Of a DNA stretch of 64,000 nucleotides, positions 47,435 to 64,000 are shown in pieces (position 1 is the first letter of the stretch; each line of letters begins with the position of its first letter). Origin of the DNA: Bacillota bacterium (GTDB taxonomy: Bacteria > Bacillota > Dethiobacteria > DTU022); assembly GCA_011389985.1 (NCBI GenBank), contig JAABTH010000001.1, positions 4,158 through 68,157 on the forward strand. Direction: 5' to 3'. Both the position numbers and the translations under genes were made by a program. The notes beneath the pieces were generated by a model. It did no database searches and was not told where the DNA came from. It saw only the letters and a list, made by a program, of their open reading frames with translations.

Positions 47435-47444
47435 AATTGTTCTC

Positions 47445-49819: not shown

Positions 49820-50938
49820 GTGGAAAGGAAAATCAGGGAATATGCTCTGGAGATAGGTTTTGATGAAGTAGGCTTTACAACCGCTGATCCATTTCCTCAG
49901 CTCATTAGCGCTCTAGAAGAGAGAAAAGAAGGTTACAGCTGGATTAGTGAAAGACTGCTGCAGCTTGCTCATGTGGCTGATCCCCATTTTGTTCTCCCCT
50001 CGGCCAAATCGATTGTTGTCCTTTTATATGATTACTACAAGCAGGCTTATCCGGAAGAGCTTCTCGGCCGGATCGGCAAGGCTTACCAGTCAAGACTGTA
50101 TCCCGGGAAAAAGCGCTTATTCGGAAGCCGCCTACGCCTGATCAGGGAGTTTCTTGAAGAGAAGGGAATGGAAGTGGGTATAAGACCGGCTATGCCGGAA
50201 CGTCAGGCAGCGGTAAGGGCAGGGGTAGGCAGGTTTGGCTGCAATACTTTTGTTTATGCCCCTGGCAGGGGTAGTTATATCGGGATCGTGGCAATGGCCG
50301 TCAGCGCCGAATTAGATCCAACAAGTGCAGATGCCGAATCAGGATGCCCCGATGATTGCCGCCGCTGCATCGAGGCCTGCCCAACAGGTGCGCTCTATGC
50401 TCCCTTTAAAATGGATCCCCTTCGCTGTATTGCTTTCAACACTTACGGCGCCGGAAATTTCCCCGGCGCACCTGAAGATATTCCCAATGATATCCGTGAA
50501 AAAATGGGCTCATGGATCTATGGTTGCGATCTCTGTCAGGATGCATGCCCAAAAAATCAAAAACGCCTAAACCAGGAGCTGCTACCTGATGTATACCTTG
50601 AGGAGGCAGCACCCGGGTTTGCGCCCGAGGTTCTCCTCGGTATGGATGATCGCTATTTCAGGGAGAAAGTGCAACAACTTCTTTATGGTTATATCTGGGA
50701 GAAGAAGTTTATCCAGCGCAATGCTGCCATTGCTCTTGGCAACCGCGGAGATGATGCTTATATTGGACTGATAGCGGATGCTCTTAAAGATCCCGAAGAT
50801 ATAGTTCGTCGCTACAGCGCCTGGGCTTTGGGACGTATAGGCGGGCTTAAAAGTAGGAAAGTTTTGGATGTGGCTCTGAAAAGAGAAGATCTACCGGCTG
50901 TGAAAGAAGAGATTAAAGAAGCACTTGGTAAAAGCTGA
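49820..50938 (+). CDS. QueG-like 4Fe-4S / HEAT-repeat protein (epoxyqueuosine reductase family; related to reductive dehalogenase-type cobalamin enzymes)
   Basis: CPDDCRRCIEACP and CDLCQDACP ferredoxin motifs, followed by C-terminal HEAT/PBS-lyase-like repeats (RRYSAWALGRIGG). Confidence 0.5.
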   Translation: MERKIREYALEIGFDEVGFTTADPFPQLISALEERKEGYSWISERLLQLAHVADPHFVLPSAKSIVVLLYDYYKQAYPEELLGRIGKAYQSRLYPGKKRLFGSRLRLIREFLEEKGMEVGIRPAMPERQAAVRAGVGRFGCNTFVYAPGRGSYIGIVAMAVSAELDPTSADAESGCPDDCRRCIEACPTGALYAPFKMDPLRCIAFNTYGAGNFPGAPEDIPNDIREKMGSWIYGCDLCQDACPKNQKRLNQELLPDVYLEEAAPGFAPEVLLGMDDRYFREKVQQLLYGYIWEKKFIQRNAAIALGNRGDDAYIGLIADALKDPEDIVRRYSAWALGRIGGLKSRKVLDVALKREDLPAVKEEIKEALGKS

Positions 50939-50988
50939 ACGGGATGATGTAAAGTTTTAAGCGAGAGATTAAAACAGGGAGGCTTAAT

Positions 50989-51807
50989 ATGGATAAGTTG
51001 ATCGTAACGGTTGCGCCAACAGGAAATGTGCCTACCAGGAAAACAAATCCTTACCTGCCGGTAACTCCCGAAGAGATTGCAGAGGATCTATACCGCTGTT
51101 ACAAAGCCGGTGCATCTGTTGCCCATATTCATGCCCGGGATGAACAAGGTAAACCTTCAGCCGACCCGGATCTGTTTCAGGCAATTACAGAACTAATCCG
51201 TGAAAAATGCGACATCATTATTCAGTTATCTACCGGTGCGCGTGCCGGCAAAAGCGCTGATGAACGCAGCGCCTGCATAGCCCTAAAGCCTGAAATGGCC
51301 AGCCTTTCAACCGGATCAACAAATTTTGCCCGTTCGGTTAATTATAACCCGCCGGCGTTGATCAAAGAGCTTGCCGGGCGAATGGAGAATCATGGCGTTA
51401 AGCCTGAAATAGAGGTTTTCGATCTTTCAGCCCTTGAGTATGCCATCTATCTGGTCGAAAAAAAGATCCTGAAAGGGCCCATGCACATTAATCTTGTTCT
51501 GGGTGTGCCCGGATCTATCAGCGGAAGCCCCCGCAATTTATTTTTTCTGGTGGAAAGTTTGCCTGCCGGTTGCACGTGGTCTGTGACAAGCATAGGCAGT
51601 AGCCACCGGCAATTGAGTGCCCTTGCTCTTATTCTGGGCGGGCATGTTCGCACCGGTCTTGAAGATGTTCTGGAACTGGAAGCCGGAAAGCCTGCTTCAA
51701 ATCTTAAACTGGTTGAAAGAATCGTTGCTTTGGCCCGTTTTTACGGTCGTGAGCCTGCTACACCGGCAGAGGCCCGCTCTATTCTCGGTTTACCTGCACT
51801 TTTCTGA
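50989..51807 (+). CDS. BKACE-family enzyme (3-keto-5-aminohexanoate cleavage enzyme-like, DUF849)
   Basis: LIVTVAPTGNVPT...HIHARDEQGKP...IIIQLSTG...INLVLGVPG matches the Kce/BKACE TIM-barrel signature. Confidence 0.7.
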   Translation: MDKLIVTVAPTGNVPTRKTNPYLPVTPEEIAEDLYRCYKAGASVAHIHARDEQGKPSADPDLFQAITELIREKCDIIIQLSTGARAGKSADERSACIALKPEMASLSTGSTNFARSVNYNPPALIKELAGRMENHGVKPEIEVFDLSALEYAIYLVEKKILKGPMHINLVLGVPGSISGSPRNLFFLVESLPAGCTWSVTSIGSSHRQLSALALILGGHVRTGLEDVLELEAGKPASNLKLVERIVALARFYGREPATPAEARSILGLPALF

Positions 51808-51833: not shown

Positions 51834-51863
51834 TTGACACAACAGGCACTGGTAAGATAATAT
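51834..51863 (+). promoter_or_regulatory. sigma-A-type promoter TTGACA-N17-ATAATA for the hisC-like gene leader
   Basis: Seen directly, ~120 nt upstream of the start codon. Confidence 0.45.
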
Positions 51864-51912
51864 TGGTATTAAGAAAAGCAGAATTAGTAACATTTTTTAA
51901 ACCTGCTGCTCA

Positions 51913-51970
51913 TAGCTAACAGATATGAGGGAGCACCGGGGTATTATCCCGCGTGCTCTTAATTTATTTT
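51913..51970 (+). promoter_or_regulatory. leader attenuator: TAG-N4-CAG-N4-GAG triplet array abutting a strong intrinsic terminator (10-bp bulged stem, 7-nt loop) and U-tract, 13 nt before the RBS of the hisC-like gene; candidate HutP-type antitermination site
   Basis: Seen directly: cat-TAG-ctaa-CAG-atat-GAG-ggag, then GAGCACCGGG-gtattat-CCCGcGTGCTC, then TTAATTTATTTT. The third NAG overlaps the 5' arm of the hairpin. Confidence 0.5.
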
Positions 51971-51983
51971 CGGAGGGGAAAAG

Positions 51984-53087
51984 ATGCAAATAATCAGTAA
52001 GCGTGCGAACCTGGATACAATTAAGGCTTATGTGCCCGGTAAACCTGTTGAAGAGGTGGAACGTGAACTGGGTGTAAAAGTTGAAGCAAAACTGGCCTCT
52101 AATGAAAATACTCTGGGGCCTTCTCCCCTGGCCGTTCGAGCAATTATTGAATCAGCCGATCATGTGAACCTATATCCTGATGGAAGCTGTCACTATCTGC
52201 GCAATGCGTTGGCCAGTAAAATTGGAGTTGATCCCGGCCAGCTAATGGTCACGAATGGAGCTGACGAGGCTCTCTCACTGATTGCCCGCACTTACATTAA
52301 CCCCGGCGAAGAAACAGTAATGCCTGATCCAAGCTTTCCCCAATATGAATTTGCAACAAGGGTGATGGACGGCAAACCACAGGTGGTTCCTCTTAGAAAA
52401 GATTTCAGCTATGATTTAGATGCGATGCTTTCTGCAGTTAATGAACATACTCGCATATTCTATTTATGCAGCCCAAATAACCCGACAGGAACCATTCTGA
52501 CAAAACCTGAACTTGAGAAAGCGCTTGATCAATTACCCGGGAACGTTTTGGTTGTGCTTGATGAAGCCTATTATGAATATGTGACCGAACCTGATTATTT
52601 CAATGCGCTGGATTATATCAGGAGCGGATATCCTGTTATAGCGCTTCGAACATTCTCCAAGATTTATGGCCTGGCAGGCTTGCGGGTGGGCTACGCTATA
52701 GCTGACGAAATGATAATAAAAGATCTGAATTCCGTGCGTGAACCCTTCAATGTGAACCGTGTTGCCCAGGTTGCTGCAGCTGCTGCGCTCGAAGATGATC
52801 AGCACGTTACGAGGAGCCTTGAAACAGTTGAAAGAGGAAAAGAATTACTTTTCGGCGAGCTTAAGTCGCTTGGTTTTTACTGTTACCCCACTCAGACCAA
52901 CTTTATTTTTGTTGATTTCAGACAGCCAACAGATCAGCTCTTTCAGGAACTGCTTAGAAAAGGCATTATTATAAGACCGGGCGGTATCTATGGTTATCCT
53001 GAACATGCCCGGGTGACAATTGGTACGGATATGGAAAACAAAAAGTTCCTGGAGAAACTGAAAGAAATTGTGAGCGCAAAGGTTTGA
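51984..53087 (+). CDS. hisC: histidinol-phosphate/aromatic aminotransferase family protein (class II PLP aminotransferase, HisC-like)
   Basis: LASNENTLGPSP at the N-terminus. PLP-lysine context FSKIYGLAGLRVGY. 367 aa. Confidence 0.8.
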   Translation: MQIISKRANLDTIKAYVPGKPVEEVERELGVKVEAKLASNENTLGPSPLAVRAIIESADHVNLYPDGSCHYLRNALASKIGVDPGQLMVTNGADEALSLIARTYINPGEETVMPDPSFPQYEFATRVMDGKPQVVPLRKDFSYDLDAMLSAVNEHTRIFYLCSPNNPTGTILTKPELEKALDQLPGNVLVVLDEAYYEYVTEPDYFNALDYIRSGYPVIALRTFSKIYGLAGLRVGYAIADEMIIKDLNSVREPFNVNRVAQVAAAAALEDDQHVTRSLETVERGKELLFGELKSLGFYCYPTQTNFIFVDFRQPTDQLFQELLRKGIIIRPGGIYGYPEHARVTIGTDMENKKFLEKLKEIVSAKV

Positions 53088-53105: not shown

Positions 53106-55127
53106 ATGCTCCATCCGTTATTCTATCCCCGGGCAGTCGCCGTTATCGGCTCTGCCGCTGAAGGTAAAATTGGCCATACCCTGATCAGCCAGCTGGTTGA
53201 AGGTGGTTTCAGCAACGTTTTTGCTGTAAACCCCAAATCACAGGGAGTCGGTACAGTACCCGGTTTTGAATCGGTAAGTGTTATTGGCAGCCCGGTAGAC
53301 CTGGCTGTTATAGCTTCACCTGCATCAACTGTCAGCGCAATTCTTGAAGATTGCGGAAAAGCCGGCGTTAAGGCGGCGATTGTAATTACTGCCGGATTTT
53401 CTGAAACCGGCAACATCGATGGCGAAATCGAGCTTAAAGCTATTGCAGACAGATATAAAATTCGCTTTGCCGGTCCTAACTGTGCAGGCATAATCAATAA
53501 CCACCACAATCTTTCTCTGACCCTTGAAACAGTACCGCCACTGGGCAAAACAGCCCTTGTTTCTCAAAGTGGCGCTCTTGGTGGTTTAATTCTCTCCTGG
53601 GCTGAAGAACAGGGCCTGGGGTTTTCAAAATTTATCAGCTACGGCAATGCTGCTGATATAAATGAGACAGATCTTCTGGAATATCTGATCAACGACAGCG
53701 AAACTGAAGTTGTGGCTTTATATGTGGAAAGTGTAAAAGACGGGCGTCGTTTTTATGAAGTTGCTTCCCGGTTAACAAAGACAAAACCGCTTGTCGTGAT
53801 CAAATCAGGACGAACTGAATCAGGCAGAAGGGCTGCTCAGTCGCATACCGGTTCAATGGCCGGCTCAGATGCTGTTTTTGACAGTGTGTTGCTTGATTGT
53901 GGCGCTATGAGAGTTTATAACGTGGAGGAAATGTTTGACCTCTGTAAGGGATTGACATCCCTCCCCCCCTTGAAAGGGAAGCGTCTAGCAGTTGTGACAA
54001 ATTCAGGAGGTCCAGGGGTGATGGCTGCAGACCATGCTGAATCTATCGGTTTGGATCTAGCCGAACCGGGCAAAAGACTCCGTGAAAAGCTTTCAGTTTT
54101 TCTGCCTCCCCAGTGTGCCCTGAAAAACCCTATTGATTTAACCGTTGAGGGAACTGAAGAAGGATACAGAAAAGCGCTTATGGCTGTACTGGAAGAATAT
54201 GATGCTGCTGTCGCAGTTTACGTGGGCACCCCCAGTCTTGCCTCGGGGCCGATTGCCGCAGGGGTATGCCAGGTAGCAATGGATACAGAAAAACCGGTTG
54301 TTCCCACTTTTATGGCGGGCAATACAGTAACAGAAGCATTAAAGCGTTTTAAGGAGTGCGGACTGCCAAATTATGCAACAGGAGAAAGGGCAGTTTCAGT
54401 GTTGGCTAAAATGGCGGAATATGAGAATGGAAAGCAGAAAGAGGCAGCCCTTTTAAAATATGACGGACCGGTGACAGGTCTGCCCGCCCGGGGACAATTG
54501 CTCGAGCCTGAAGCGATGACTTTGTTAAAGGAAAACGATCTGCCCGTGCCGCGGTTTTTATTTGCATTAAACCCGGATGATGCAGTTGGCGCTGCAGCGG
54601 AGATAGGCTATCCTGTTGTTATGAAAGTTGTTTCTCCTGATATCCTGCACAAGTCGGAATATGGCGGGGTAATAATAAATATTATGGGTGCTAAAGAGGT
54701 TGAGGCTGCTTTTGAAAAGATAGAAGATGGTGCAGCCGGGAAAGATTTTCGAGGCGTTGTAATTTATCCTATGATTAAAGATGCGAGGGAAGTAATACTG
54801 GGGCTCTATCGCGATCCGCAGTTTGGCCCGGTTGTTGCTTTCGGCATGGGCGGTATATACACGGAAATCATTGGAGATATTGCTTTAAGGCTTGCCCCGC
54901 TGACCCAAAAGAGAGCAGCCGGGATGATCAGGGAAATAAAAACTTTACCTTTGCTGGAAGGTATGCGCGGGCAGAAGGCAGTCAATTTCGATCTGCTCGA
55001 AAGAATGCTTGTCAGCTTTTCTTTATTACCCTTTAAGTATCCGGATATTACAGAAATGGATCTCAATCCTGTATTCCTGAAAGAGGATGATATATTTGTC
55101 GGGGATGTGCGGATAATCCGAGCCTGA
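53106..55127 (+). CDS. ADP-forming acyl-CoA synthetase (acetate--CoA ligase (ADP-forming) family, fused alpha/beta subunits)
   Basis: N-terminal CoA-binding and succinyl-CoA-synthetase-like domains (AVIGSAAEGKIGHTL...), then a C-terminal ATP-grasp domain. 673 aa. Confidence 0.8.
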   Translation: MLHPLFYPRAVAVIGSAAEGKIGHTLISQLVEGGFSNVFAVNPKSQGVGTVPGFESVSVIGSPVDLAVIASPASTVSAILEDCGKAGVKAAIVITAGFSETGNIDGEIELKAIADRYKIRFAGPNCAGIINNHHNLSLTLETVPPLGKTALVSQSGALGGLILSWAEEQGLGFSKFISYGNAADINETDLLEYLINDSETEVVALYVESVKDGRRFYEVASRLTKTKPLVVIKSGRTESGRRAAQSHTGSMAGSDAVFDSVLLDCGAMRVYNVEEMFDLCKGLTSLPPLKGKRLAVVTNSGGPGVMAADHAESIGLDLAEPGKRLREKLSVFLPPQCALKNPIDLTVEGTEEGYRKALMAVLEEYDAAVAVYVGTPSLASGPIAAGVCQVAMDTEKPVVPTFMAGNTVTEALKRFKECGLPNYATGERAVSVLAKMAEYENGKQKEAALLKYDGPVTGLPARGQLLEPEAMTLLKENDLPVPRFLFALNPDDAVGAAAEIGYPVVMKVVSPDILHKSEYGGVIINIMGAKEVEAAFEKIEDGAAGKDFRGVVIYPMIKDAREVILGLYRDPQFGPVVAFGMGGIYTEIIGDIALRLAPLTQKRAAGMIREIKTLPLLEGMRGQKAVNFDLLERMLVSFSLLPFKYPDITEMDLNPVFLKEDDIFVGDVRIIRA

Positions 55128-55229
55128 AAACCGGATATATTTGACATTGATTTCAGCGGTATTTATAGTAAAATAAAGTTGTGTTTAATTTCACAACAGC
55201 GTTTAAACCGCTCTCGGAGGATATAATAT

Positions 55230-55676
55230 TTGAGTACTTTAGGTAGTATTGCTATAGGTATCGCCATTGCCGAAGCTGGTGAAGAGGCAGAAACGTTAAT
55301 TAGCGAGGCGCGAAAACTGGGCTATAAGGCTATCCGCAGCCAGGTAGGTTCAATGTCAATGGATAAGGTTATTGCCGCTATTGAGACAGCTTCGCGCCGA
55401 GAAGGGATAATTTCCGACACATATCACCAGGAACATGCTCTTTACCATGCTATAATTGATGCTTTGCTCGGAGTTTGCCGGGGCCAGCTTGAATTGGGTA
55501 ACATTGTAAGGACCGTAGGGTTAAGCTATTCGGTGGTGTGTGGACCGATCAAGTCTGACTGCAACAGGGAAGAAAATTGGATCATGGTAGTTTTATACGG
55601 AACGATTGGAGCTCCGATTAAAGGTTTTGAGCATGAGGCAATTGGCCTCGGCACTTACCATATAGACACCAGATAA
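55230..55676 (+). CDS. hutP: HutP-family RNA-binding antiterminator protein
   Basis: 148 aa. VGSMSMDKVIAAIETASRREGII...HALYHAIIDALLGVCRGQ...VRTVGL...LYGTIGAPIKGFEHEAIGLGTYHI aligns closely with B. subtilis HutP (VGSMDAHKVIAAIETASKKSGVI...HALYHATMEALHGVTRGE...LRTVGL...LYGTIGAPIKGLEHETFGVGINHI). TTG start with a GGAGG RBS. A TTGACA-N17-TATAGT promoter lies at ~55143. Confidence 0.8.
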   Translation: MSTLGSIAIGIAIAEAGEEAETLISEARKLGYKAIRSQVGSMSMDKVIAAIETASRREGIISDTYHQEHALYHAIIDALLGVCRGQLELGNIVRTVGLSYSVVCGPIKSDCNREENWIMVVLYGTIGAPIKGFEHEAIGLGTYHIDTR

Positions 55677-55690
55677 AAGTCAGGCAATAT

Positions 55691-55806
55691 CAGATTGCAG
55701 GTGTCAGCCCGGCCTTGCAGTAACAAACCAAATAGTTAATGCTTTTTACAGGCACATTAGACAACAGACAAGAGAGTGTTCTAGATTCTGGCGCTCTTTT
55801 TTTGTT
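55691..55806 (+). promoter_or_regulatory. hutP-iorA intergenic leader with two NAG-N4-NAG-N4-NAG arrays (CAG-attg-CAG-gtgt-CAG at 55691-55707; TAG-acaa-CAG-acaa-GAG at 55758-55774), an imperfect hairpin (55770-55798) and T-run (55796-55806); candidate HutP-dependent terminator/antiterminator
   Basis: Triplet spacing seen directly. The second array overlaps the 5' arm of the hairpin. The stem is imperfect (7 bp with one mismatch), so terminator strength is uncertain. Confidence 0.45.
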
Positions 55807-55843
55807 TAGAATTAATACAGAAAATTGTACAGGAGGTGCTGAT

Positions 55844-57721
55844 TTGAGCTTAAAATTTATATCCGGCAATGAAGCGATTGCGTACGGTTCACTCCGGGCC
55901 GGAGTTAAGGTTGTTTCAGGTTATCCCGGAACCCCTTCGTCAGAAGTAATTACAAGTTTGTTGAAGAATAAACCGGAAGGTGTATATGTTGAATGGAGCA
56001 GTAATGAAAAGGTAGCTTTTGAAATTGCAGCGGCTGCTTCCTGGGCGGGACAGCGTGCTTTATGCACCATGAAAATGTCCGGTCTGAACGTGGCCTATGA
56101 TTCACTGGCTTCTGTTGCTTATTCCGGCTGCAGCGGTGCTCTGGTAGTATATGTTGCTGATGATCCCGGTGTTAGTGCAGGGATGTGCGAGCAGGACTCA
56201 AGAGGTTTTGCCCTGATGTCGGATATGCCCATGCTTGAGCCTGCCTCGGTTGAAGAAGCTTACAGCTTAACCCGGTTTGCCTTTGAGCTGTCAGAGTCAA
56301 CCGGGACCCCTGTTTTTATCAGGATGGTAACGGCTACTGCTCTTTCATATGGTGGAATGGATCTAGAGGACCCTCCTGTGTTCCCGGAGCGCGAACCGAA
56401 ACTGATAAAAGATATTGCCAAGTATACAAAAGCCGGTTCAGCAATCTGCCTCGATCAGCACAGTGATGTAATTGAGCGCTTGAGTGAAGCAGGAGAGATC
56501 ATCAGGGGAAAAAAGATAAACAGGTTATCGCTTTCTCCTAAAGCCGGCGGCCTTGGCATTATTGTTGCCGGAGCTGTTTTCCCCTACCTGGAAGAAGGTT
56601 TAAGGCTGGTTGAAGAACATGGTTTCAAAATCGGTCCCGTTTCAACTTTAAAAGTGACAGCGACTGTGCCTTTTCCTGCTGAAGAGGTTAGAAGCTTAAT
56701 CAAGCATTGTTCATCCCTGCTTATTTTGGAAGAGCTCGAGCCCCACCTGGAAAAAGATCTTTATATCGAGGCTCATAAGTTTGGTTTTTCCGGAAAGATA
56801 ATCGGCAAACTTGACGGCACCCTGAGCCGAATTGGTGATTATTCCGCTGAACAAGTGGTTAAAGGGATCGCGGCAGCGTTTACTCTTAATTTACCCGCCG
56901 GTATTTTCGGAGATGAATATAAAGGTGAGAAACTTACTGCTTCAAGGCCTATTACCACCTGTGCCGGCTGCCCACACCGCGGAACATTCTTGGCAATCAA
57001 TAAAGCTATAAAAGAGCTTAAATTTAAAAAAGATGAAGTGGTGGTCACCGGTGACATCGGCTGCACCATTCTTGGCATGAACCCGCCATTTAACACGGTA
57101 TGGACAGAGATATCGATGGGTGCAAGCATCGGATTTGCCCAGGGCTATTATCACAGCGGGGTAAAAACCCCGGTTATCGCCACCATAGGTGATTCTACAT
57201 TTTTCCATGCAGGCATACCATCTCTGGTAAATGCTATTCAGCACCAGGTTCCATTAACGCTGATTATAATGGATAACGGCTGGACCAGTATGACCGGAAT
57301 GCAGGTCAGCCCGGGTACTGATGAAAAGTTTCAGCAGCCAGGCAATCAGCGTCTTGATCTGGCTAAAATATTGCCGGCTCTGGGTATCGATCATTTTAAA
57401 ATGATTAATCCATACGAACTTGAAGAGTCTACTGCGGCAATTCGCGAAGCGATGACTCTTCCCGGTGTAAAGGTAATTCTATCCCGCCAGGAATGTGCAA
57501 TTCAGGCTATGCGTCAGGGTAAACGTTACGGGAAAAGCACGGTTATTGAAGATAACTGTAATAAATGCAAGCTGTGCATTACTGTTACCGGCTGCCCGGC
57601 AATTTCTCTCGGAGAGGAATCGATCGTTATAGATCCGGCTTTATGCTATGGCTGCGGTCTTTGCAGCCAGGTGTGCAATCGCGAAGCGATTGAAAGGGGG
57701 CCTGTAAAAGATGTATTATGA
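55844..57721 (+). CDS. iorA: indolepyruvate:ferredoxin oxidoreductase subunit alpha (IorA; TPP enzyme with 2x[4Fe-4S])
   Basis: ISGNEAIAYGSLRAGVKVVSGYPGTPSSEV at the N-terminus, a TPP-binding GDIGC/GDSTFFH region, and C-terminal CNKCKLCITVTGCP / CYGCGLCSQVC. Start placed at a TTG with a GGAGG RBS 7 nt upstream; the track ORF starts earlier, inside the leader. Confidence 0.85.
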   Translation: MSLKFISGNEAIAYGSLRAGVKVVSGYPGTPSSEVITSLLKNKPEGVYVEWSSNEKVAFEIAAAASWAGQRALCTMKMSGLNVAYDSLASVAYSGCSGALVVYVADDPGVSAGMCEQDSRGFALMSDMPMLEPASVEEAYSLTRFAFELSESTGTPVFIRMVTATALSYGGMDLEDPPVFPEREPKLIKDIAKYTKAGSAICLDQHSDVIERLSEAGEIIRGKKINRLSLSPKAGGLGIIVAGAVFPYLEEGLRLVEEHGFKIGPVSTLKVTATVPFPAEEVRSLIKHCSSLLILEELEPHLEKDLYIEAHKFGFSGKIIGKLDGTLSRIGDYSAEQVVKGIAAAFTLNLPAGIFGDEYKGEKLTASRPITTCAGCPHRGTFLAINKAIKELKFKKDEVVVTGDIGCTILGMNPPFNTVWTEISMGASIGFAQGYYHSGVKTPVIATIGDSTFFHAGIPSLVNAIQHQVPLTLIIMDNGWTSMTGMQVSPGTDEKFQQPGNQRLDLAKILPALGIDHFKMINPYELEESTAAIREAMTLPGVKVILSRQECAIQAMRQGKRYGKSTVIEDNCNKCKLCITVTGCPAISLGEESIVIDPALCYGCGLCSQVCNREAIERGPVKDVL

Positions 57722-58307
57722 TATTTATCTGGTTGGCGTAGGCGGCCAGGGTATACTTACAATCGGTGAAATTATTGCCGAAGCGGCCTTAAAACTTGAT
57801 ATTCCTGCCAATTTTTACCCGACCAAGGGGATGGCTCAGCGGGGTGGTTTTGTTAAAGCTCAGCTGCGTCTGGGTAGTTACAATGTGGGTCCAAGTATCG
57901 CTGAAAAAGGAGCTAACCTGGTTATTGCCATGGAGCTTTCCGAATCGCTGAAAGCACTGCGTTACTTTAAACCGGATGGTGATTTTGCCCTTTACAGTTC
58001 GGTCTGGTCTCCTACGGCTGTAATGCTTGGAAAAGCGCCATATCCGGCAGTAGAAGAAGTTTTAGCAGAGATTAACAAAACAGGTGGAAGGACTATCCAC
58101 ATCAAACCTGAAGAAAGACCGCAATTTGAAGGACAGCCCGTCCCTGAAAATGTTTATGTTTTAGGAGCTGTATGTCGCCATTCTTCATTGGGCCGGTTTA
58201 TCGACCCTGAGGAAATCAGGGCTACCATAAAGACCAGGTGGAAAAAGGGAATAGAAAGAAATCTATATACTTTTGATGCCGGGTTTAATCTTAACAATCA
58301 AGATTAA
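57711..58307 (+). CDS. iorB: indolepyruvate:ferredoxin oxidoreductase subunit beta (IorB)
   Basis: MYYDIYLVGVGGQGILTIGEIIAEAA is the pyruvate/ketoisovalerate oxidoreductase gamma-like signature. Overlaps the iorA stop (ATGA). Confidence 0.85.
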   Translation: MYYDIYLVGVGGQGILTIGEIIAEAALKLDIPANFYPTKGMAQRGGFVKAQLRLGSYNVGPSIAEKGANLVIAMELSESLKALRYFKPDGDFALYSSVWSPTAVMLGKAPYPAVEEVLAEINKTGGRTIHIKPEERPQFEGQPVPENVYVLGAVCRHSSLGRFIDPEEIRATIKTRWKKGIERNLYTFDAGFNLNNQD

Positions 58308-58367: not shown

Positions 58368-59810
58368 GTGTTCAAAATAACCGCGTATCGTTCAAATTAT
58401 AGTCAACAGTTATCCCCGAAGTTAAGCTGGTTCTGCGAAAGCCAGATCGAAGAGATTCACAGCGCTACAATTGATGTTCTTGAGAGAGTTGGTGTAAGGG
58501 TTGATCATGATCAAGCCCTCAGACTTTTAAAAGATGCAGGGTGTATAGTAAAAGACCGCGTGGCCAGAATTCCGGGCTGGCTCGTCGATGAAGCAATCAA
58601 ACTTGCTCCTTCAAAAGTCAATATTTACAGCCGTGAGGGCGAACCGGCGATGAGCCTGGAAAAGAATTGCACTTATTATGGCACTGGTTCAGATTTGCCC
58701 TTTCACCTTGATCTTGAAACGGGAGAAAGGCGGGGATCTGTTAAACAAGATATCATTAATGCTGCAGCTATTATGGAAAATCTTCCTAATTTTGATTTTG
58801 TGATGAGCTACGCCATACCAGGCGATGTAGAGGCTGCAAGAGGCTGCCTGCACCAATTTGCAGCGCTCACCCTACATACGGCCAAGCCAGTTATCTTTAC
58901 CGCTTTGAGTGAAGAGCACACCAGGACAATTATCGAAATGGCCGCTGCCGCGGCCGGTTCTTATGACAACCTGCGGGCTAAACCTTATATTATTATCTAC
59001 GATGAACCAATTTCACCCCTGGTCCATACTTATGATGGTATTGCTAAAATGTTTGCCTGCATAGAACATGGCATACCGGTTATTTATACACCCGGTGTTG
59101 TTGCCGGAGGAACCTGCCCGGTAACAAAGGCCGGCACAATTGTGCAGATGAACGCGGAATCTCTTTCCGGCCTTGTTATAGCCCAGCTTAAGCAAAAGGG
59201 CGCTGCCGTTATTATTGGCGGTGGGGCAACCCCGATGGATATGAAAACTACGGCGACGCTTTATGGCTCACCGGAGGCGGCGATGAACTATGCTGCTATG
59301 ACAGAGCTTGCTCAGTATTACAGGTTACCCAATTTCACTGAGGCGGGCTGCTGCAATGCTCCTGTGCCCGACGCCCAGGCCGGGATGGAAGCGGCAATTG
59401 GTCTTTTGCTTAACCAGCTGTGCGGCGCCAACCTGGTTCACGACGTGGGCTACCTTGATTGTGGAAAAACCGGATCACTGCCTTTCCTGGTAATGTGTGA
59501 TGATTTTATCAGCGCTGTTCGGTATATCGGGGCAGGAACCCCGATCAACAGCGATACAATCGGCGTCGATACCATTGTAGAGGTTGGCCCGGCAGGCCAT
59601 TATCTTGGTGAAGATCATACCATGAAACATTTTCGTAATGAGATCTGGATGCCTGCAGTATTTAACAGAATGATGTATGAAGTCTGGGAGCAGCTGGGCA
59701 GTAAAGACTGTTTGGATCTGGCCCGGGAAAAGGTAATCAATATTCTAAAGGATGAGCCGACTAATGAACTATCGCCGGCTATATCCAGGCAGATTATAAG
59801 CTTGTTGTAA
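58368..59810 (+). CDS. MttB-superfamily methyltransferase (trimethylamine methyltransferase family, non-pyrrolysine member; quaternary-amine:corrinoid methyltransferase-like)
   Basis: 480 aa, continuous with no in-frame TAG. Conserved MttB-family N-terminal region (QIEEIHSATIDVLERVGVRVDHDQALRLLKDAGC). Start codon uncertain: the GTG at 58368 abuts the GGAGG. Confidence 0.8.
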   Translation: MFKITAYRSNYSQQLSPKLSWFCESQIEEIHSATIDVLERVGVRVDHDQALRLLKDAGCIVKDRVARIPGWLVDEAIKLAPSKVNIYSREGEPAMSLEKNCTYYGTGSDLPFHLDLETGERRGSVKQDIINAAAIMENLPNFDFVMSYAIPGDVEAARGCLHQFAALTLHTAKPVIFTALSEEHTRTIIEMAAAAAGSYDNLRAKPYIIIYDEPISPLVHTYDGIAKMFACIEHGIPVIYTPGVVAGGTCPVTKAGTIVQMNAESLSGLVIAQLKQKGAAVIIGGGATPMDMKTTATLYGSPEAAMNYAAMTELAQYYRLPNFTEAGCCNAPVPDAQAGMEAAIGLLLNQLCGANLVHDVGYLDCGKTGSLPFLVMCDDFISAVRYIGAGTPINSDTIGVDTIVEVGPAGHYLGEDHTMKHFRNEIWMPAVFNRMMYEVWEQLGSKDCLDLAREKVINILKDEPTNELSPAISRQIISLL

Positions 59811-60509
59811 GAATTAAGGTGAACCTTAATAAGAGACTGAACAAGTGGATTACTTTTCGGGAAGATTTATTTCCCCTCTAAGAAGGAGATCCGGGTGGAT
59901 TAGAACCTGACGAACATGTACATCGCTAGCAGGATTATAATCCGACAGCATTCTCAAGACAAAAGAAGTATTGGAGGGTTTTTGGTATGCAACCATTTAC
60001 ACACAAGCAATCTTTCTTTGGATATGTTATGTTGGCGACATTTTTAACATTTTAATAGCACCTTGAGGACAAGAGTTAGAGCAAAGCCCACAGCCTATAC
60101 ATAAATCTTGGTTAAATGCAACTTCTTTCTAGAAATAATAATTAATCATGGCAAGAAAAAAATGAACATTTAGCTGCTCAAATTAACAACCCTATGCTAT
60201 AGGCTGCTACATACACATTAAGATTTAACTGTATTTAATGGAGCAATGCATTCTTTTGAAAGGGAATATGAGGAACGCCTGAGTCAAGCGAAGAGAATCA
60301 TACAATTATTCACAAGATTATTCAACGCAATTATTGAAACATAAGCATTATTGTTAACTATACAAGCAAAATAGATTTAACTATGCCTGACCGTATCAAG
60401 GATAAAAGTTATGCAAATCGTATAAATGTTATGCATTTTCGGATAGCCCCTACCACTATTAATGATATAGAGTTTAAAATATTAGTGATGCATAAATTTT
60501 ATGCGAATA

Positions 60510-62222
60510 CTATTCAGGTTTAGTAATATCAAGCTTTTTCATCCTATAATCCAGGCTTTGTCTTATTATACCTAATTCTTTAGATGTTTTAGTCAAATGC
60601 CAGTTGTTTTTCAACAAGCTTTTTCGAAGTATCCTTGCTTCAAACGTATTTAGCATTTTGGGCAATGATTGAGTTGAATTTGTGCGAGAACTCAAATCGT
60701 CTTGTTGGACGAGACTGTCTATAAAGAAGTCTGGTAAATGTTCAACGCCTAATTGCTTTCCATCAGCTTTTATCATTGCAGATTGTATGGTGTGTTCAAG
60801 TTCACGTATATTCCCCGGCCATTGATATTTAATTAATGTCTGTTGAAGTTCATTCACCAAAAATTCAATTTTCTTACCTAACAGCTTTTTATGTTTATTG
60901 ATGAAATAATAAGAGAGATAAATAATATCCTTATCGCGTTCTCTTAAAGGCGGTATTTGAATAATCGCTCCAGCAATTCTATAATAGAAATCTTCTCGTA
61001 GAATATTTCTTTCGATTAATTCCGCAGGGTTTTTATTAGTAGCACAGATTAATCTACAATTAACTGGTATTGTATTTAACCCCCCGATTTTCCTAATAAG
61101 CTTTTCTTCAACCGCCCGAAGAAGTTTAGTTTGTAGCGTGATTGGGAGTGAATTGACTTCATCTAAAAACAAGGTCCCCTTCTTGGCTGCTTCAAATAAA
61201 CCAATTCGATCTACTGCACCAGTATAGGAACCCTTAACAGTACCAAAGAGTGTACTTTCAAGTAAATTTTCAGGGATAGCGGCACAGTTAATAGCAATAA
61301 ATGGTTCGTTTTGATTCTGACCAAAGTTATGGATACTCTGGGCAAAAAGCTCTTTTCCTGTTCCCGTTTCACCTACAATTAGTACATTGGTCTGCATTAA
61401 AGCAACATTCTGGGCTTCTTTAATTAGACCTTTCATCTTCTTGCTTTCTGATTTTATATTATCAAATGTATACTTTGTGCCATTTCTGTTTATCGGTCTT
61501 TCGCTTTGACTACTATCATTTGAGAATAATTGTCTTTTTAAATCAATGGTTTCGTGTAGCAGGTTTCTTAATGACGTTTCATTTTTACTGACAGTATAGA
61601 CGGCAATGGTCTTGCCGTTTTTATAAATTGGATATGTGCTATATGAAAGATATTTAGCTTCGCCATTAGTAAATGCATGTGCCTTATAAGCATTAAATAT
61701 CGGTTTGCCGGAATTAAACACCTCTCTGTGCTCAGACAGCTCTGGATTATTGTATCCATATGCATCCCAGAGATATTTTCTTAGTATATTTTTTGCTTTT
61801 AATCCTTCCAATTCTTCTTGAGACTTATTATATAGAACTAATCTGCCATTATGGTCGCTGATAATGACACCCTCATAGATGTTATCAATAATCTCTTCCA
61901 GGCAATAAAGCCTAACACTATCATTGCAAAAATCTACCATGCTGTTAAAAATAATAATCTGGTATTCGTTTTCTTCAGATTGGCATAGCTTTAACTTTAC
62001 CTCATATACTTTATCTCTTATAGTATGTAAGGTCTCGCCATCTTTTTTCAAGGATTTTAGATCAATATCAATCACAGATGATAGTGAATTACCATATATA
62101 ACTTCCCTGGTGCATAACGGTTTTATTTTTCGATCAGCAAAAATAATTTGATCACTTTCATCTAATACTATGCAACCATCTATATATTCTTCCAGTAATT
62201 CAATTAAAAACAACCCTTCCAT
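60510..62222 (-). CDS. sigma-54-dependent transcriptional activator (bacterial enhancer-binding protein) with N-terminal PAS domains and C-terminal Fis-type HTH
   Basis: AAA+ sigma-54 interaction domain (VLIVGETGTGKELFAQSIH; the GAFTGA-type loop reads GSYTGA; ...), then C-terminal HTH LTKTSKELGIIRQSLDYRMKKL. Transcribed divergently from hutU. Confidence 0.85.
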   Translation of the reverse strand: MEGLFLIELLEEYIDGCIVLDESDQIIFADRKIKPLCTREVIYGNSLSSVIDIDLKSLKKDGETLHTIRDKVYEVKLKLCQSEENEYQIIIFNSMVDFCNDSVRLYCLEEIIDNIYEGVIISDHNGRLVLYNKSQEELEGLKAKNILRKYLWDAYGYNNPELSEHREVFNSGKPIFNAYKAHAFTNGEAKYLSYSTYPIYKNGKTIAVYTVSKNETSLRNLLHETIDLKRQLFSNDSSQSERPINRNGTKYTFDNIKSESKKMKGLIKEAQNVALMQTNVLIVGETGTGKELFAQSIHNFGQNQNEPFIAINCAAIPENLLESTLFGTVKGSYTGAVDRIGLFEAAKKGTLFLDEVNSLPITLQTKLLRAVEEKLIRKIGGLNTIPVNCRLICATNKNPAELIERNILREDFYYRIAGAIIQIPPLRERDKDIIYLSYYFINKHKKLLGKKIEFLVNELQQTLIKYQWPGNIRELEHTIQSAMIKADGKQLGVEHLPDFFIDSLVQQDDLSSRTNSTQSLPKMLNTFEARILRKSLLKNNWHLTKTSKELGIIRQSLDYRMKKLDITKPE

Positions 62223-62366
62223 TTATTCACATCCCCAGTCAAATCTTTTGGATATTAAAGCTTACTTCTTCTTCCTGATAATATTTCCTTTTCTAACTAC
62301 CAACTGATAACTAAAATTTAATCTGCATTATAAAAAAAATACAGGCCAAACTTTTATATAACAACT

Positions 62367-62381
62367 TGGCATGATAGTTGC
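62367..62381 (+). promoter_or_regulatory. sigma-54 (-24/-12) promoter TGGCAT-N5-TTGC upstream of hutU
   Basis: TTGGCATGATAGTTGC is seen directly, ~40 nt upstream of the hutU start and adjacent to the divergent sigma-54 activator gene. Confidence 0.65.
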
Positions 62382-62421
62382 GTTGTAGTATCAAGTAATT
62401 ATTGTTGAGGAGGTAATCAAA

Positions 62422-64000
62422 TTGACAAAACCGGAAATCTATTATTCTGTTAAGGCAGAGCGGGGAGCGAACCTACGTTGCAAAGGTTGGAAACAGGAGA
62501 CCATCCTGCGCATGCTCGAAAATAACATGGAAAACGCAGAAAAACCGGAAGAATTGGTTATATATGGAGGCATCGGCAAGTGTGCCCGAAACTGGGAATC
62601 ATATCACGCCATAGTTAAAGCCTTAAAAGATCTGGAAAATGACGAGACACTGGTCATGCAGTCAGGAATGCCTGTAGCAGTTTTTAAAACGCACAGGCTA
62701 GCCCCGACAGTTGTGATGGCCAACACTAATATAATGAAAGCAACCTGGCCTATTTTTTACGAATTGCAGGACAAAAATTTAACAATGTTTGCCCAGTACA
62801 CAGCTGCTCCCTGGGAATATATTGGCACCCAGGGAGTAATTCAGGGAACTTTTGAAACCCTTTCAGCGGTGGCCAGAAAATGCTATGATGACTCGCTCGT
62901 TGGTAAAATTTTATTGACGGCAGGTGCTGGTGGGATGGGTGGCAATCAAACCAGGGCGATGACCATGCATGGAGGTGTAGCTATACTGTGTGATGCTAAC
63001 AGGGAGATTATCGAAAGACGTATAAGTAAAAAATTTATGGATGTTTTGGTAGGTTCACTGGACGAAGCGATTATAATGGCGAAAGAGTTTGCTGCGAAAA
63101 AAGAAACTATTGGCATCGGCGTTGTTGGCAACGCTGCTGATATTTTTGAAGAGGCTCTAGCAAAGGGGTTTAGCCCGGATATCGTTACAGAGATGTGCCC
63201 CTGTCACGATCCTCTTTCTTATATCCCATCCGGTTTTACCCCCCAGGAAGCTGACCGACTGAGAATTGAAAACAGGGAACTTTATCTTAAAAAAGCACAG
63301 GAGACTATGATCAGGCAGCTTAGGGCAATGAATGAGTTCTATGAAAGGGAAATCCCCACTTTCGAATATGGAACCAGTATCCGCAAAGAATGTCGTGACG
63401 CAGGGATGCCGGAAGAAGAGGCAATGATAATACCTGGTTTTGTCGCCGAATATATCCGGCCCTTATTCTGTGAAGGGCGTGGCCCTTTCCGCTGGACTTG
63501 TATATCAGGTGAAGCGAGTGATTTAAGCAAACTTGATGATCTTTGCCTTGAGATGTTTGAAGATGATCTTTTAGTAACAAGATGGATCGGGCTTGCCAGG
63601 CAGCATATTCCGATTGAAGCCTTGCCGGCAAGGATTTGTTATCTTGGTTTCGGGCAGCGTAAGAGATTTGCCCTTGCAGTAAATGCTTTGATTAGAACAG
63701 GCGAAGTGAAAGGCCCTGTGGCTTTTTCAAGAGATAATCTAGATTCCGGCTCTATAGTTAACCCTACTTTCGAATCAGAGAATATGCCGGACGGTAGTGA
63801 CCTTATATCGGACTGGCCAATGTTAAACGGGCTGTTAAATGCTATTGGGATGTCTGATTTAATAGCAATACAGGCTAATTACTCGATGGGCGAAGCGGTG
63901 CATACAGGGGTTACTATGATTGCCGATGGCACGGATGAAGCGGATCTCAGGCTTTCCGTTTGCATGACTGTAGACTCGGGTATCGGAGTTGTCCGGCATG
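62422..64000 (+). CDS. hutU: urocanate hydratase (HutU), partial; continues beyond window end
   Basis: LRCKGWKQETILRMLENNMENAEKPEELVIYGGIGKCARNWESYHAIVKALKDLENDETLVMQSGMPVAVFKTH...GAGGMGGNQ aligns with HutU along the whole visible length. TTG start with a GAGGAGG RBS. Missing from the ORF track because it has no stop inside the window. Confidence 0.9.
   Translation, partial: MTKPEIYYSVKAERGANLRCKGWKQETILRMLENNMENAEKPEELVIYGGIGKCARNWESYHAIVKALKDLENDETLVMQSGMPVAVFKTHRLAPTVVMANTNIMKATWPIFYELQDKNLTMFAQYTAAPWEYIGTQGVIQGTFETLSAVARKCYDDSLVGKILLTAGAGGMGGNQTRAMTMHGGVAILCDANREIIERRISKKFMDVLVGSLDEAIIMAKEFAAKKETIGIGVVGNAADIFEEALAKGFSPDIVTEMCPCHDPLSYIPSGFTPQEADRLRIENRELYLKKAQETMIRQLRAMNEFYEREIPTFEYGTSIRKECRDAGMPEEEAMIIPGFVAEYIRPLFCEGRGPFRWTCISGEASDLSKLDDLCLEMFEDDLLVTRWIGLARQHIPIEALPARICYLGFGQRKRFALAVNALIRTGEVKGPVAFSRDNLDSGSIVNPTFESENMPDGSDLISDWPMLNGLLNAIGMSDLIAIQANYSMGEAVHTGVTMIADGTDEADLRLSVCMTVDSGIGVVRH

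Follow-up and report, generated by a model that had tools for sequence, protein, structure and literature searches.

Genes and regulatory features of the locus

The 64,000-nt stretch of DNA analysed here, referred to as the window, carries a hutP gene between the genes of a HisC-like aminotransferase and a fused ADP-forming acyl-CoA synthetase (ACD) on one side and iorA, iorB and an MttB-family gene on the other (Table 1). The best solved relatives of the aminotransferase are HisC (3FFH) and a Phe aminotransferase (4R2N). The ACD scores under every NCBIfam equivalog cut-off. The two-subunit architecture of IorAB fits an indolepyruvate:ferredoxin oxidoreductase (IOR), and since both subunits score under the NCBIfam equivalog cut-offs, the assignment is made at the family level only. 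The start of iorA, previously placed at 55845, is corrected to a TTG at 55844, with a GGAGG ribosome-binding site (RBS) at 55832-55836. In the 60 nt that separate iorB from the next gene, no terminator was found. The MttB-family reading frame is uninterrupted and is thus assigned to a non-pyrrolysine member. Its start codon is uncertain because the GTG at 58368 overlaps the RBS. The protein scores 407.5, under the trimethylamine (TMA)-methyltransferase equivalog cut-off of 525, and is about equally far from MttB (7XCL) and MtgB (2QNE).

Table 1. Features of the hisC-like/ACD and hutP-iorA-iorB-mttB region (window coordinates).
Feature	Position	Strand	Basis
Promoter-like TTGACA-16-GATAAT, hisC-like operon	51834..51861	+	11 of 12 in consensus scan
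HutP attenuator motif no. 1	51903..51941	+	CM R2; homology to hutH leaders
Intrinsic-terminator-like hairpin, hisC leader	51930..51975	+	Fold; T7 in relatives
HisC-family (class I/II) aminotransferase	51984..53087	+	NCBIfam hisC TIGR01141, 344 bits (cut-off 276.55)
Fused ADP-forming acyl-CoA synthetase (ACD)	53106..55127	+	Pfam CoA_binding_2, Succ_CoA_lig, ATP-grasp_5
hutP promoter-like site TTGACA-17-TATAGT	55141..55169	+	Consensus scan; conserved in relatives
hutP, 148 aa, TTG start	55230..55676	+	Pfam HutP, NCBIfam HutP equivalog, B. subtilis HutP structures
Two further strict NAG arrays	55663..55707	+	Pattern match; not conserved, missed by CMs
HutP attenuator motif no. 2	55748..55786	+	Array in 20-nt loop; conservation; CM R1
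Intrinsic terminator, iorA leader	55773..55803	+	Folds; stem and T-run conserved
iorA-like alpha subunit (TPP and 4Fe-4S)	55844..57721	+	IOR_alpha, 569.9 bits (equivalog cut-off 650.9)
iorB-like beta subunit	57711..58307	+	IOR_beta, 126 bits (cut-off 205.8)
Non-pyrrolysine MttB-superfamily member	58368..59810	+	PF06253, 301.9 bits

No histidine ammonia-lyase (HAL) gene was found in the 64-kb window. The canonical hutU-hutI-FTCD-hutH genes begin at 62422 and continue past the window end (locus L153); they follow a sigma-54-type promoter and carry no HutP motif. It should be mentioned that this adjacent operon was absent from the initial annotation. The idea that hutH was lost and replaced is true only of the position behind the conserved leader, as the genome keeps hutH ~10 kb downstream.

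HutP and its ligand-binding residues

The initial annotation had read the 148-aa product as a HutP homolog, and profile and structure comparisons bear this out. The protein matches Pfam PF09021 with 89.7 bits (cut-off 25), passes the NCBIfam equivalog NF002838 with 164 bits (cut-off 155) over residues 3-145, and aligns with the B. subtilis HutP structures 1WMQ and 1VEA at E=4e-36. The promoter proposed for hutP was likewise found as a promoter-like site; it is kept in the related locus L001, and the L002 version reads TTGCTA-17-TATAGT. In B. subtilis HutP, Y69, H73, H77, R88, R98 and H138 reportedly bind Mg2+/L-histidine (work by Kumarevel et al., 2005). These six residues are invariant in our alignment, the window protein included. 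All family-invariant residues are kept, among them the equivalents of Y69, H73, H77, R88 and R98, as are the equivalents of E137-H138-E139 (B. subtilis numbering). The equivalent of E81 is D, a residue also frequent among hutH-linked HutPs.

The window clade departs from hutH-linked HutPs at the otherwise conserved positions G40S, K41Q, R70H, R111I, A122M and N146Y, and these substitutions may reflect a change of ligand. None of three candidate markers of IOR linkage held up. R70H is common to the window clade and to the unrelated locus L049, yet it also occurs in P0113, whose plain hutU-FTCD-hutI context makes it non-diagnostic; N146Y and G40S are both found in ordinary hut loci as well.

A conserved attenuator motif ahead of iorA

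The hutP-iorA spacer holds an array of three NAG triplets with 4-nt spacing, TAG-acaa-CAG-acaa-GAG (55758-55774), inside a 20-nt loop. The loop is closed by a helix, P1, in which 55751-55 (GGCAC) pairs with 55776-80 (GUGUU); with three Watson-Crick and two G.U pairs, P1 is weak in this leader. The hairpin and T-run described earlier for this spacer are confirmed: 55773-80 pairs with 55790-97, and U7 comes next, at 55797-55803. The 5' arm of this terminator overlaps both the last NAG triplet and the 3' strand of P1. The fold of the whole spacer is not more stable than shuffled sequences (z = -0.76).

Comparison with relatives shows which parts of the leader are retained. The adjacency of hutP and iorA is present in relatives, and six lineages share both the order hutP-leader-iorA-iorB-mttB and the terminator-adjacent NAG array. 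In these lineages the six AG dinucleotides never change while the N bases and the spacers drift, and the terminator stem and T-run are kept, with U.G to U-A changes. Within this clade the changes in P1 and terminator are one-sided only, with no compensatory pairs. The covariance model (CM) R1 scores the iorA leader at 23.4 bits (E 5.5e-4). The leave-out model CM R2, built only from leaders preceding hutH in other genomes, gives 10 bits (E 1.9), a non-significant score because the register of P1 is shifted by 1 nt.

These observations bear on the alternative that the hairpin at 55773-55803 is simply the terminator of a monocistronic hutP, that iorAB has a promoter of its own, and that HutP acts only at the hisC leader or elsewhere. 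The low score of the leader with the hutH-leader model agrees with it, as do the frequency of array pairs by chance across the window and a promoter-like TAGACA-18-TAGATT (55758-55787) inside the leader. However, this promoter candidate was rejected as a weak match that overlaps the array and is not conserved; L002 has CAGATA and TTTTCC in place of the two hexamers, and all six lineages retain the six AG dinucleotides amid drifting neighbouring bases. No convincing promoter was found between 55804 and 55843 either, the layout of the leader is identical to that of canonical hut attenuators, and a high-scoring attenuator precedes iorA at L049. We regard this alternative as very unlikely.

The initial annotation had described two arrays in the spacer, taken as counterparts of the B. 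subtilis sites I and II. Both exist, and only 55758-55774 is conserved. The first of them, CAG-attg-CAG-gtgt-CAG at 55691-55707, is a strict match, and a third strict array at 55663-55679 overlaps the hutP stop codon. In the alignment of orthologous leaders, the triplets of 55758-55774 are kept in six lineages and those of 55691-55707 are not: both upstream arrays are gone from L002, L090, L091 and L092, and L001 retains them only in part, so that the proposed site pair is missing even in relatives with HutP proteins 84-95% identical. Neither upstream array is detected by the CMs, and they are at most lineage-specific auxiliary sites.

A dual-site arrangement, with 55691-55707 and 55758-55774 serving as sites I and II on two faces of the hexamer, is most improbable on this evidence, even though both arrays are strict and a cluster of three arrays is rare by chance (3/700). 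In B. subtilis, the GC-rich 5' arm of the terminator lies between the two HutP sites, which a 12-17-nt linker separates (PMC2425495). The arrays in the window are 50 nt apart, a geometry that does not fit, and canonical clostridial hut leaders have one array. In neither leader of the window does a second array lie within the stem or beyond it, as the dual-site type would require.

A second attenuator motif ahead of the hisC-like gene

Judged by its sequence, the segment 51903-51975 is a second, stronger copy of the iorA-leader RNA motif. This attenuator, ahead of hisC-ACD, was absent from the initial annotation. In motif no. 1, P1 is formed by 51907-11 (UGCUC) and 51931-35 (GAGCA), and the loop presents the array UAG-cuaa-CAG-auau-GAG (51913-51929). 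A hairpin with a 13-bp stem follows (51930-51959), then an interrupted U-tract, CUCUUAAUUUAUUUU, where relatives carry an uninterrupted T7. For this leader the folding energy is -33.7 kcal/mol (z = -3.0) and the CM R2 score 39.0 bits (E 7e-9). The promoter-like site of this operon is conserved in L082.

This leader is homologous to that of attenuator-hutH-hutP-mttB operons at 17 soda-lake Syntrophomonadaceae loci, whose hutH leaders have near-identical flanks. The triplets are conserved in L082 and the 17 hutH leaders while the spacers vary.

Statistics, covariation and spread of the motif

In the window as a whole, 30 matches to the array pattern were observed against 27.5 expected, which is no enrichment. 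A 167-nt spacer would hold about 0.036 arrays by chance. Of 700 simulated windows of 64 kb, 3 contained a group of three non-overlapping arrays spanning no more than 120 nt, and 262 contained a pair; two arrays alone are therefore not decisive. As a positive control, a strict array is present in the spacer at 24 of 28 loci with hutH directly after hutP (29 arrays observed, 1.26 expected). Among iorA-type loci the proportion is 6/6, with 11 arrays observed against 0.29 expected. Canonical clostridial hutP-hutH leaders have a single array abutting the terminator, the same layout as in the window, where the array in each leader adjoins or runs into the 5' arm of its intrinsic terminator.

Across 30 attenuators, P1 is paired in 81.7% of cells compared with 65% in shuffles, and its covariation score is 0.493 compared with 0.225; neither value was reached in 500 shuffles (0/500 each). 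Slid controls are 33-56% paired. Across clades the array lies in a 19-20-nt loop whose closing helix covaries and competes with the terminator. A search of both strands of the 64 kb with CM R1 returns exactly two sites, the hisC and iorA leaders, and no match in the adjacent sigma-54-type hut operon. A scan of the window with Rfam yields no family at gathering thresholds, nor at E<=1 around the two leaders. A metagenome scan with the iorA-type core GCACAYNAG..AGAGTGC was set aside: none of its 56 matches lies near HutP, IOR or a T-run, and they are taken as chance matches.

The motif also occurs at other loci. L049, an unrelated Peptococcaceae MAG, has the order hutP-attenuator-iorA-iorB-ACD with a HutP 53% identical to that of the window, and its leader scores 38 bits (E 9e-8) with the model built only from hutH leaders. 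Mono Lake loci carry corrinoid protein-MtmB-iorAB-Aminotran_3-ACD-hutP-attenuator-MttB, and P0010 and P0011 adjoin corrinoid protein and MtmB genes. In Clostridia-type genomes the attenuator further precedes transporters, a UbiD-family decarboxylase and 2-hydroxyacid dehydrogenases.

Proposed mechanism and pathway

Regulation by HutP attenuators is well supported. The earlier proposal of a HutP-type antitermination switch on iorAB gains support from the conserved gene arrangement and array and from the L049 locus; the MttB-family gene, named before as a possible member of the controlled operon, is probably included. The protein's identity, the anatomy, conservation and covariation of the motif and the gene contexts are direct observations, whereas HutP binding, read-through, the ligand and the substrates are inferred, as follows. 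hutP would have a sigma-70-type promoter of its own, and transcripts reading on from the ACD gene may contribute. The leaders at 51903-51975 (hisC-like/ACD) and 55748-55803 (iorA-iorB-mttB) would act as the same RNA switch, in which P1 closes the array loop and its 3' strand would serve as the start of the terminator 5' arm. Without ligand, the more stable terminator would form and transcription would stop. Ligand-loaded HutP, presumably a hexamer with the three triplets on one face and with L-histidine plus Mg2+ as the most likely ligand, may hold the P1/loop conformer or mask the base of the terminator hairpin, which would let RNA polymerase read through.

We consider it likely that ligand-bound HutP, the ligand probably being histidine, antiterminates both hisC-ACD and iorAB-mttB, and that the controlled enzymes form an ATP-yielding transamination route from histidine to imidazole acetate. 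The HisC-like aminotransferase would convert histidine to imidazolepyruvate, the IOR-family oxidoreductase would convert this to imidazol-4-ylacetyl-CoA with reduction of ferredoxin, and the ADP-forming synthetase would release imidazole acetate and ATP. The MttB-family methyltransferase would be co-transcribed with iorAB. It is noted that the scores of IOR and ACD under the equivalog cut-offs and their usual arylpyruvate substrates count against this reading. So do the weak P1, the one-sided changes, the unremarkable whole-spacer fold and the low CM R2 score of the iorA leader, the interrupted U-tract of the hisC leader, and the HutP substitutions of the window clade.

The same switch could respond to another signal, with HutP sensing an aromatic amino acid or an N-methylated histidine such as hercynine. 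In that case the operons would be used to break down aromatic amino acids or methylated amines: MttB, MtmB, corrinoid and URO-D proteins would carry out the demethylation, and transamination, IOR and ACD would come next. The arylpyruvates normally used by IOR-family enzymes, the aromatic aminotransferases within the HisC family (4R2N), the substitutions of the window clade at conserved HutP positions, and the repeated linkage of the nearest HutP relatives to corrinoid methyltransferase genes (Mono Lake, P0010, P0011, soda-lake) are in its favour. However, the family-invariant HutP residues are all conserved, and R70H, N146Y and G40S are also seen where the genes around hutP are ordinary hut genes (P0113; L052, Sporomusa loci). 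The hisC leader is homologous to leaders that control a genuine histidine ammonia-lyase, one carrying the MIO motif ASG, and no literature link of MttB enzymes to histidine betaines was found. A different signal is possible though unlikely. Histidine-betaine lyases and ergothionases do not have the Ala-Ser-Gly triad (bioRxiv 10.64898/2026.04.22.720169); the HALs beside MttB at L008 and L153 keep ASG, and their reading as trimethylammonia-lyases was rejected for this reason.

Comparison with known systems

Histidine-dependent antitermination by HutP, the preferred reading, shares with the B. subtilis hutP-hutH terminator the protein family, the NAG triplets with 4-nt spacing, the order hutP, terminator, regulated genes, and a last triplet touching the terminator stem. 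In contrast to B. subtilis, where hutHUIGM are regulated, the targets in the window are the HisC-like aminotransferase, ACD, IOR-family and MttB-family genes. The locus has two separate attenuators, each with a single conserved array where B. subtilis has two sites separated by 12-17 nt, and with the array looped by a covarying, terminator-competing helix; the canonical hut genes lie behind a sigma-54-type promoter without a HutP motif. In the HutP literature consulted, descriptions were found only for hutPHUIGM of Bacillus, and none of an array loop closed by a terminator-competing helix.

The soda-lake Syntrophomonadaceae MAGs (L006-L042) have attenuator-hutH-hutP-mttB-URO-D, with a leader homologous to 51903-51975, a HutP 51-59% identical to that of the window and an orthologous MttB (71-78% identical). 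In those MAGs a genuine histidine ammonia-lyase gene stands behind the leader, and hutP and mttB come after it with no further attenuator. In the window that position is taken by hisC-like/ACD, hutP has a promoter of its own, and a second attenuator precedes an inserted iorAB.

Thermococcales break histidine down with an aminotransferase, then with a 2-oxoacid:ferredoxin oxidoreductase yet to be identified, and finally with an ADP-forming imidazol-4-ylacetyl-CoA synthetase (PMC9986279, PMC3942289). The three enzyme classes (TK0548, oxidoreductase, ICS) appear in the same logical order, with substrate-level phosphorylation last. That system differs in being archaeal, with dispersed genes, no HutP and another aminotransferase subfamily; the substrates in the window are predicted. 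TRAP at the Bacillus trp leader is likewise an amino-acid-activated oligomer that selects alternative RNA structures through repeated NAG triplets, but it has an unrelated fold, is an 11-mer on 11 triplets, and promotes termination where HutP prevents it.

Implications

The mechanism is known; the non-hut target genes and the modular use in Clostridia-type genomes appear to be new. A quite unlikely extension is that the HutP clade serves as sensor for a so far unrecognised anaerobic pathway for N-methylated histidines such as hercynine (histidine betaine). If so, non-pyrrolysine MttB/MtmB corrinoid methyltransferases would strip the methyls, feeding acetogenesis, and the resulting histidine would be fermented to imidazole acetate via the HisC-like aminotransferase, imidazolepyruvate:ferredoxin oxidoreductase and the ADP-forming synthetase. 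The IOR homologue would be the missing 2-oxoacid oxidoreductase of the histidine branch, and there would be a reason why HutP attenuators are repeatedly linked to histidine ammonia-lyase and MttB-family genes.

Published accounts treat HutP as the regulator of one operon, the hut genes of Bacillus, while here its RNA switch is used as a module. A HutP attenuator may therefore serve as a regulatory tag that links enzymes to histidine or a close derivative, and one enzyme so tagged is a candidate for the imidazolepyruvate:ferredoxin oxidoreductase that is a gap in the Thermococcales pathway. The compact RNA motif, which is not in Rfam, is usable for genome-wide searching, and it points to a possible refined mechanism, with an antiterminator helix closing the loop that displays the triplet array.

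HutP protein, its promoter and 5′ UTR

The product of hutP matches Pfam PF09021 (89.7 bits) and the NCBIfam equivalog NF002838 (164 bits, cut-off 155), and B. subtilis HutP crystal-structure sequences match it with E=4e-36, which bears out the initial annotation of this 148-aa protein as a HutP homolog. The gene had also been assigned its own TTGACA-N17-TATAGT promoter; this site is present, and the closest relatives keep it ahead of hutP. In the alignment, all family-invariant HutP residues are kept. Compared with hutH-linked HutPs, the window-clade proteins carry G40S, K41Q, R70H, R111I, A122M and N146Y (B. subtilis numbering), R70H being common to the HutP of L049, a locus from an independent Peptococcaceae MAG. 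No diagnostic signature emerged from this comparison; R70H is also found in the homologue P0113 of plain hut context, and both N146Y and G40S occur in plain-hut-context HutPs.

It is noted that a perfect palindrome, GTTGTGTTTAATTTCACAAC (TGTG-N8-CACA, CRP/FNR-like), lies at 55178-55197 in the hutP 5′ UTR, between promoter and RBS. It is kept in the relative locus L001, not in L002, and could serve as operator site of a DNA-binding regulator or fold into a small hairpin at the 5′ end. Some genomes have two hutP paralogues within one locus, as in L067 (6064-6420 and 11515-11874) and L087 (1586-2014, minus strand, and 8001-8441, plus strand). In L087, one copy adjoins genes for URO-D and a TRAP transporter; the second, an orphan, is flanked by a FAD-oxidase/CCG pair on one side and by a 2-oxoacid dehydrogenase complex on the other.

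Features of the HutP-linked region and the downstream hut genes
Feature	Position	Strand	Remark
EamA, MFS, URO-D, QueG-like Fe-S protein, BKACE	46496-51807	+	upstream block
Promoter-like TTGACA-16-GATAAT	51834-61	+	upstream of hisC-like leader
HisC-like aminotransferase	51984-53087	+	behind promoter and first attenuator
ADP-forming acyl-CoA synthetase (ACD)	53106-55127	+	after HisC-like gene
Promoter-like TTGACA-17-TATAGT	55141-55169	+	hutP promoter, consensus match
hutP	55230-55676	+	TTG start, 148 aa; Pfam/NCBIfam matches
Third strict array	55663-679	+	overlaps hutP stop codon
NAG-N4-NAG-N4-NAG array, 'site I'	55691-707	+	strict pattern, hutP-iorA spacer
NAG-N4-NAG-N4-NAG array, terminator-adjacent	55758-774	+	strict pattern, hutP-iorA spacer
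Hairpin	55773-80 with 55790-97	+	then U7 at 55797-803
iorA-like	TTG 55844	+	GGAGG upstream; behind second attenuator
iorB-like	57711-58307	+	after iorA
Non-pyrrolysine MttB-superfamily gene	58368-59810	+	after iorB
PrdR-like sigma-54 activator	60510-62222	-	divergent from urocanase-family gene
Sigma-54-type promoter TGGCAT-N5-TTGC	62367-62382	+	precedes urocanase-family gene
Urocanase-family gene	62422-64000	+	runs off window end; profile matches

NAG array and terminator ahead of iorA

The hutP-iorA spacer had been described as holding two strict arrays and a terminator-like hairpin. Both arrays are present, together with the third one at the hutP stop codon, and folding returns the hairpin followed by U7. 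Strict arrays are at chance level across the whole window (30 observed vs 27.5 expected), with ~0.036 expected in the spacer; three non-overlapping arrays within 120 nt occurred in only 3/700 simulated windows and array pairs in 262/700.

In an alignment of iorA-type leaders from six lineages (the window, L001, L002, L090, L091 and L092; HutP 84-100% identical), none of the six AG dinucleotides changes, the N bases vary (T/C, C/T, G/A) and so do the spacers. Also retained are the flanking GCAC...GUGC and the terminator together with its T-run, U.G pairs having turned into U-A in places. The rest of the leader, including 'site I', is not alignable among the six, so that only the terminator-adjacent member of the proposed pair is conserved. 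The two B. subtilis sites lie on either side of the GC-rich terminator arm, joined by a linker of 12-17 nt (PMC2425495), whereas the proposed pair is 50 nt apart; the B. subtilis-type dual-site architecture is therefore not supported. The conservation does support the terminator-adjacent array as the candidate HutP element.

Probable second attenuator ahead of the hisC-like gene

The leader of the hisC-like gene reads CCUGCUGCUCA-UAG-cuaa-CAG-auau-GAG-GGAGCACCGGGG...CCCGCGUGCUCUUAAUUUAUUUU and contains a strong hairpin (leader fold z = -3.0). In its flanks it is nearly identical to an element lying ~1.7 kb ahead of hutP in loci of soda-lake Syntrophomonadaceae MAGs; in 17 loci this element precedes a true histidine ammonia-lyase (HAL) with the ASG MIO motif kept (697 bits vs NCBIfam hutH). 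Downstream of the lyase come hutP, an MttB gene sharing 71-78% identity with that of the window, and the gene of a URO-D-type methyltransferase. A covariance model built solely from 17 leaders preceding hutH, none of them from the window clade, has its top match in the window at 51903-51941 (39.0 bits, E 7e-9); the iorA leader scores just 10 bits (E 1.9), owing to a one-nucleotide shift of its closing helix. With a model that includes all 30 attenuators, a search of the 64 kb on both strands returned exactly two significant sites, 51903-41 (37.3 bits) and 55748-86 (23.4 bits, E 5.5e-4), the next-best match reaching 14 bits. HutP-dependent attenuation of both operons is considered probable.

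It should be mentioned that the U-tract after the hisC-leader hairpin (51960-51975) is interrupted in the window and in the relative L082 (CUCUUAAUUUAUUUU). The hutH-leader homologues L019, L023 and L009 have an uninterrupted T7 at this position, and basal termination at the hisC leader may be weaker in the window/L082 lineage.

A helix closing the array

Complementary segments that would form a helix, termed P1, border the 17-nt array in every clade: UGCUC/GAGCA and GGCAC/GUGUU in the hisC and iorA leaders, respectively, of the window, GGAGCAC/GUGCUUU in L002, CAAACCC/GGGUUUG in the soda-lake locus L007, GCUC/GGGC in Desulfosporosinus, AGCCC/GGGCU in Aneurinibacillus and Pelotomaculum, and CUACUC/GAGUAG in L049 and others. 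Using an ungapped alignment of 30 attenuators and 500 shuffles, 81.7% of P1 cells are paired (65.0% in shuffles) and the covariation score is 0.493 (0.225 in shuffles), neither value being reached in any shuffle (0/500 each). Two-sided changes are found in 4/6 pairs, and slid controls are 33-56% paired. Since the 3′ strand of P1 is the beginning of the terminator 5′ arm, P1 and the terminator are mutually exclusive. One face of the HutP hexamer binds three triplets along a triangular path; this path would bring the array ends together, which could favour P1 over the terminator. A literature search found no description of such an array-closing helix.

Attenuators in other HutP-linked loci

HutP homologues were collected, and 80 genome loci, the best from among 427 HutP-bearing GTDB genomes, were fetched, plus further contigs. 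Among the loci fetched, a strict array is present in the spacer of 24/28 loci with hutH directly after hutP (29 arrays observed, 1.26 expected) and in 6/6 iorA-type loci. Canonical clostridial hut leaders (Desulfosporosinus, Dethiobacter, Sporomusa, Aneurinibacillus) have one array each, the last AG of which reaches into the terminator stem, the same anatomy as window 55758-55803. In Sporomusa sp. KB1 (L048), a group II intron reverse transcriptase/maturase ORF (6561-8356) lies between the attenuator and hutH.

In other Bacillota, covariance-model matches also place HutP-type attenuators before many genes outside the hut set, among them a UbiD-family decarboxylase with DAP-epimerase-like and Succ_CoA_lig-domain proteins (L002, 1280-4765), a 2-hydroxyacid dehydrogenase with a LarA-like protein (Pelotomaculum), a corrinoid protein with an X-Pro dipeptidyl peptidase (L033, 858-3751), Opp-type ABC transporters, an amino-acid permease, MFS transporters and MttB-family genes. 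Besides L002 and L033, the loci concerned are L069/L070/L075 (~6480-9020), L150 (1865-6160), L083 (8724-10327), and L038 and L010 (~8130-10900).

Canonical hut genes under probable sigma-54-type control

The urocanase-family gene scores 606 bits against hutU TIGR01228 and 625 bits, below the cut-off of 880, against the S-methyl thiourocanate hydratase model. One 78%-identical homologue bears the UniRef name N(tele)-methylurocanate hydratase. Contig L153 (1-14631), 100% identical to window 59492-64000, continues downstream with hutI-FTCD_C-FTCD-HAL-MttB#2-Pro_racemase-sigma54 activator#2-MttB#3, in which HAL is a true HAL with ASG present, MttB#2 is MttB-family and Pro_racemase is a proline-racemase-family gene. 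No HutP motif was detected in L153; the HutP motifs of this genome are thus attached only to non-hut operons, and its classical hut pathway appears to be sigma-54-controlled.

Gene order and proposed function

In the window, hutP, with its own promoter, follows the ACD gene, and attenuator, iorA-like, iorB-like and MttB-family genes lie downstream. L049 (HutP 53% identical) has the order hutP-attenuator-iorA-iorB-ACD, and the hutH-only model gives its attenuator 38.2 bits. In contigs from Mono Lake, whose HutP is 68% identical, the order is corrinoid protein-MtmB-iorA-iorB-aminotransferase-ACD-hutP-attenuator-MttB.

At its mechanically assigned GTG start, the MttB-family ORF runs into its Shine-Dalgarno sequence GGAGG (58364-68), and the true start is probably a few codons downstream; in the L081 orthologue, gene callers put it 3 codons later. 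An SBP_bac_5 solute-binding protein gene follows mttB in relatives (L001/L081, soda-lake loci). The window has a 54-aa remnant, 48% identical to such a protein, on the opposite strand (59901-60062), which suggests rearrangement or decay downstream of mttB. In the upstream block, the URO-D-type protein is an MT2-like methyltransferase and the QueG-like protein is of Fe-S/HEAT type. EamA lies directly before the attenuator and URO-D directly after mttB in soda-lake loci, so the block may be part of the same metabolic island.

An aminotransferase, a 2-oxoacid:ferredoxin oxidoreductase and an ADP-forming synthetase constitute the classic peptide-fermentation module. The histidine route of Thermococcales employs aminotransferase TK0548 and imidazol-4-ylacetyl-CoA synthetase, its oxidoreductase being still unidentified (PMC9986279, PMC3942289). 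The window oxidoreductase and ACD score below equivalog cut-offs, and their substrates are putative. Given the hutH-leader homology, the HisC-family aminotransferase and the conserved HutP core, a histidine-induced, ATP-yielding route to imidazole acetate would be the most economical reading, which we put forward tentatively. Less probably, the same switch could respond to a signal other than free histidine, such as hercynine: HutP attenuators repeatedly occur together with HAL genes and genes for corrinoid methyltransferases (MttB, MtmB, corrinoid protein, URO-D), and may accordingly have a part in breaking down methylated histidine derivatives. The literature search found no link between MttB enzymes and histidine betaines.

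In a 2025 review, the Bacillus hutPHUIGM operon is the sole entry for HutP (PMC12591593). No Rfam family covers the leader, and HutP combined with MttB or indolepyruvate oxidoreductase was not found in the literature search. The mechanism is of a known kind; what is new is the regulon itself, the fact that two attenuators are used, the separation of the switch from hutH in this genome, and an architecture with a single array as loop-in-helix.
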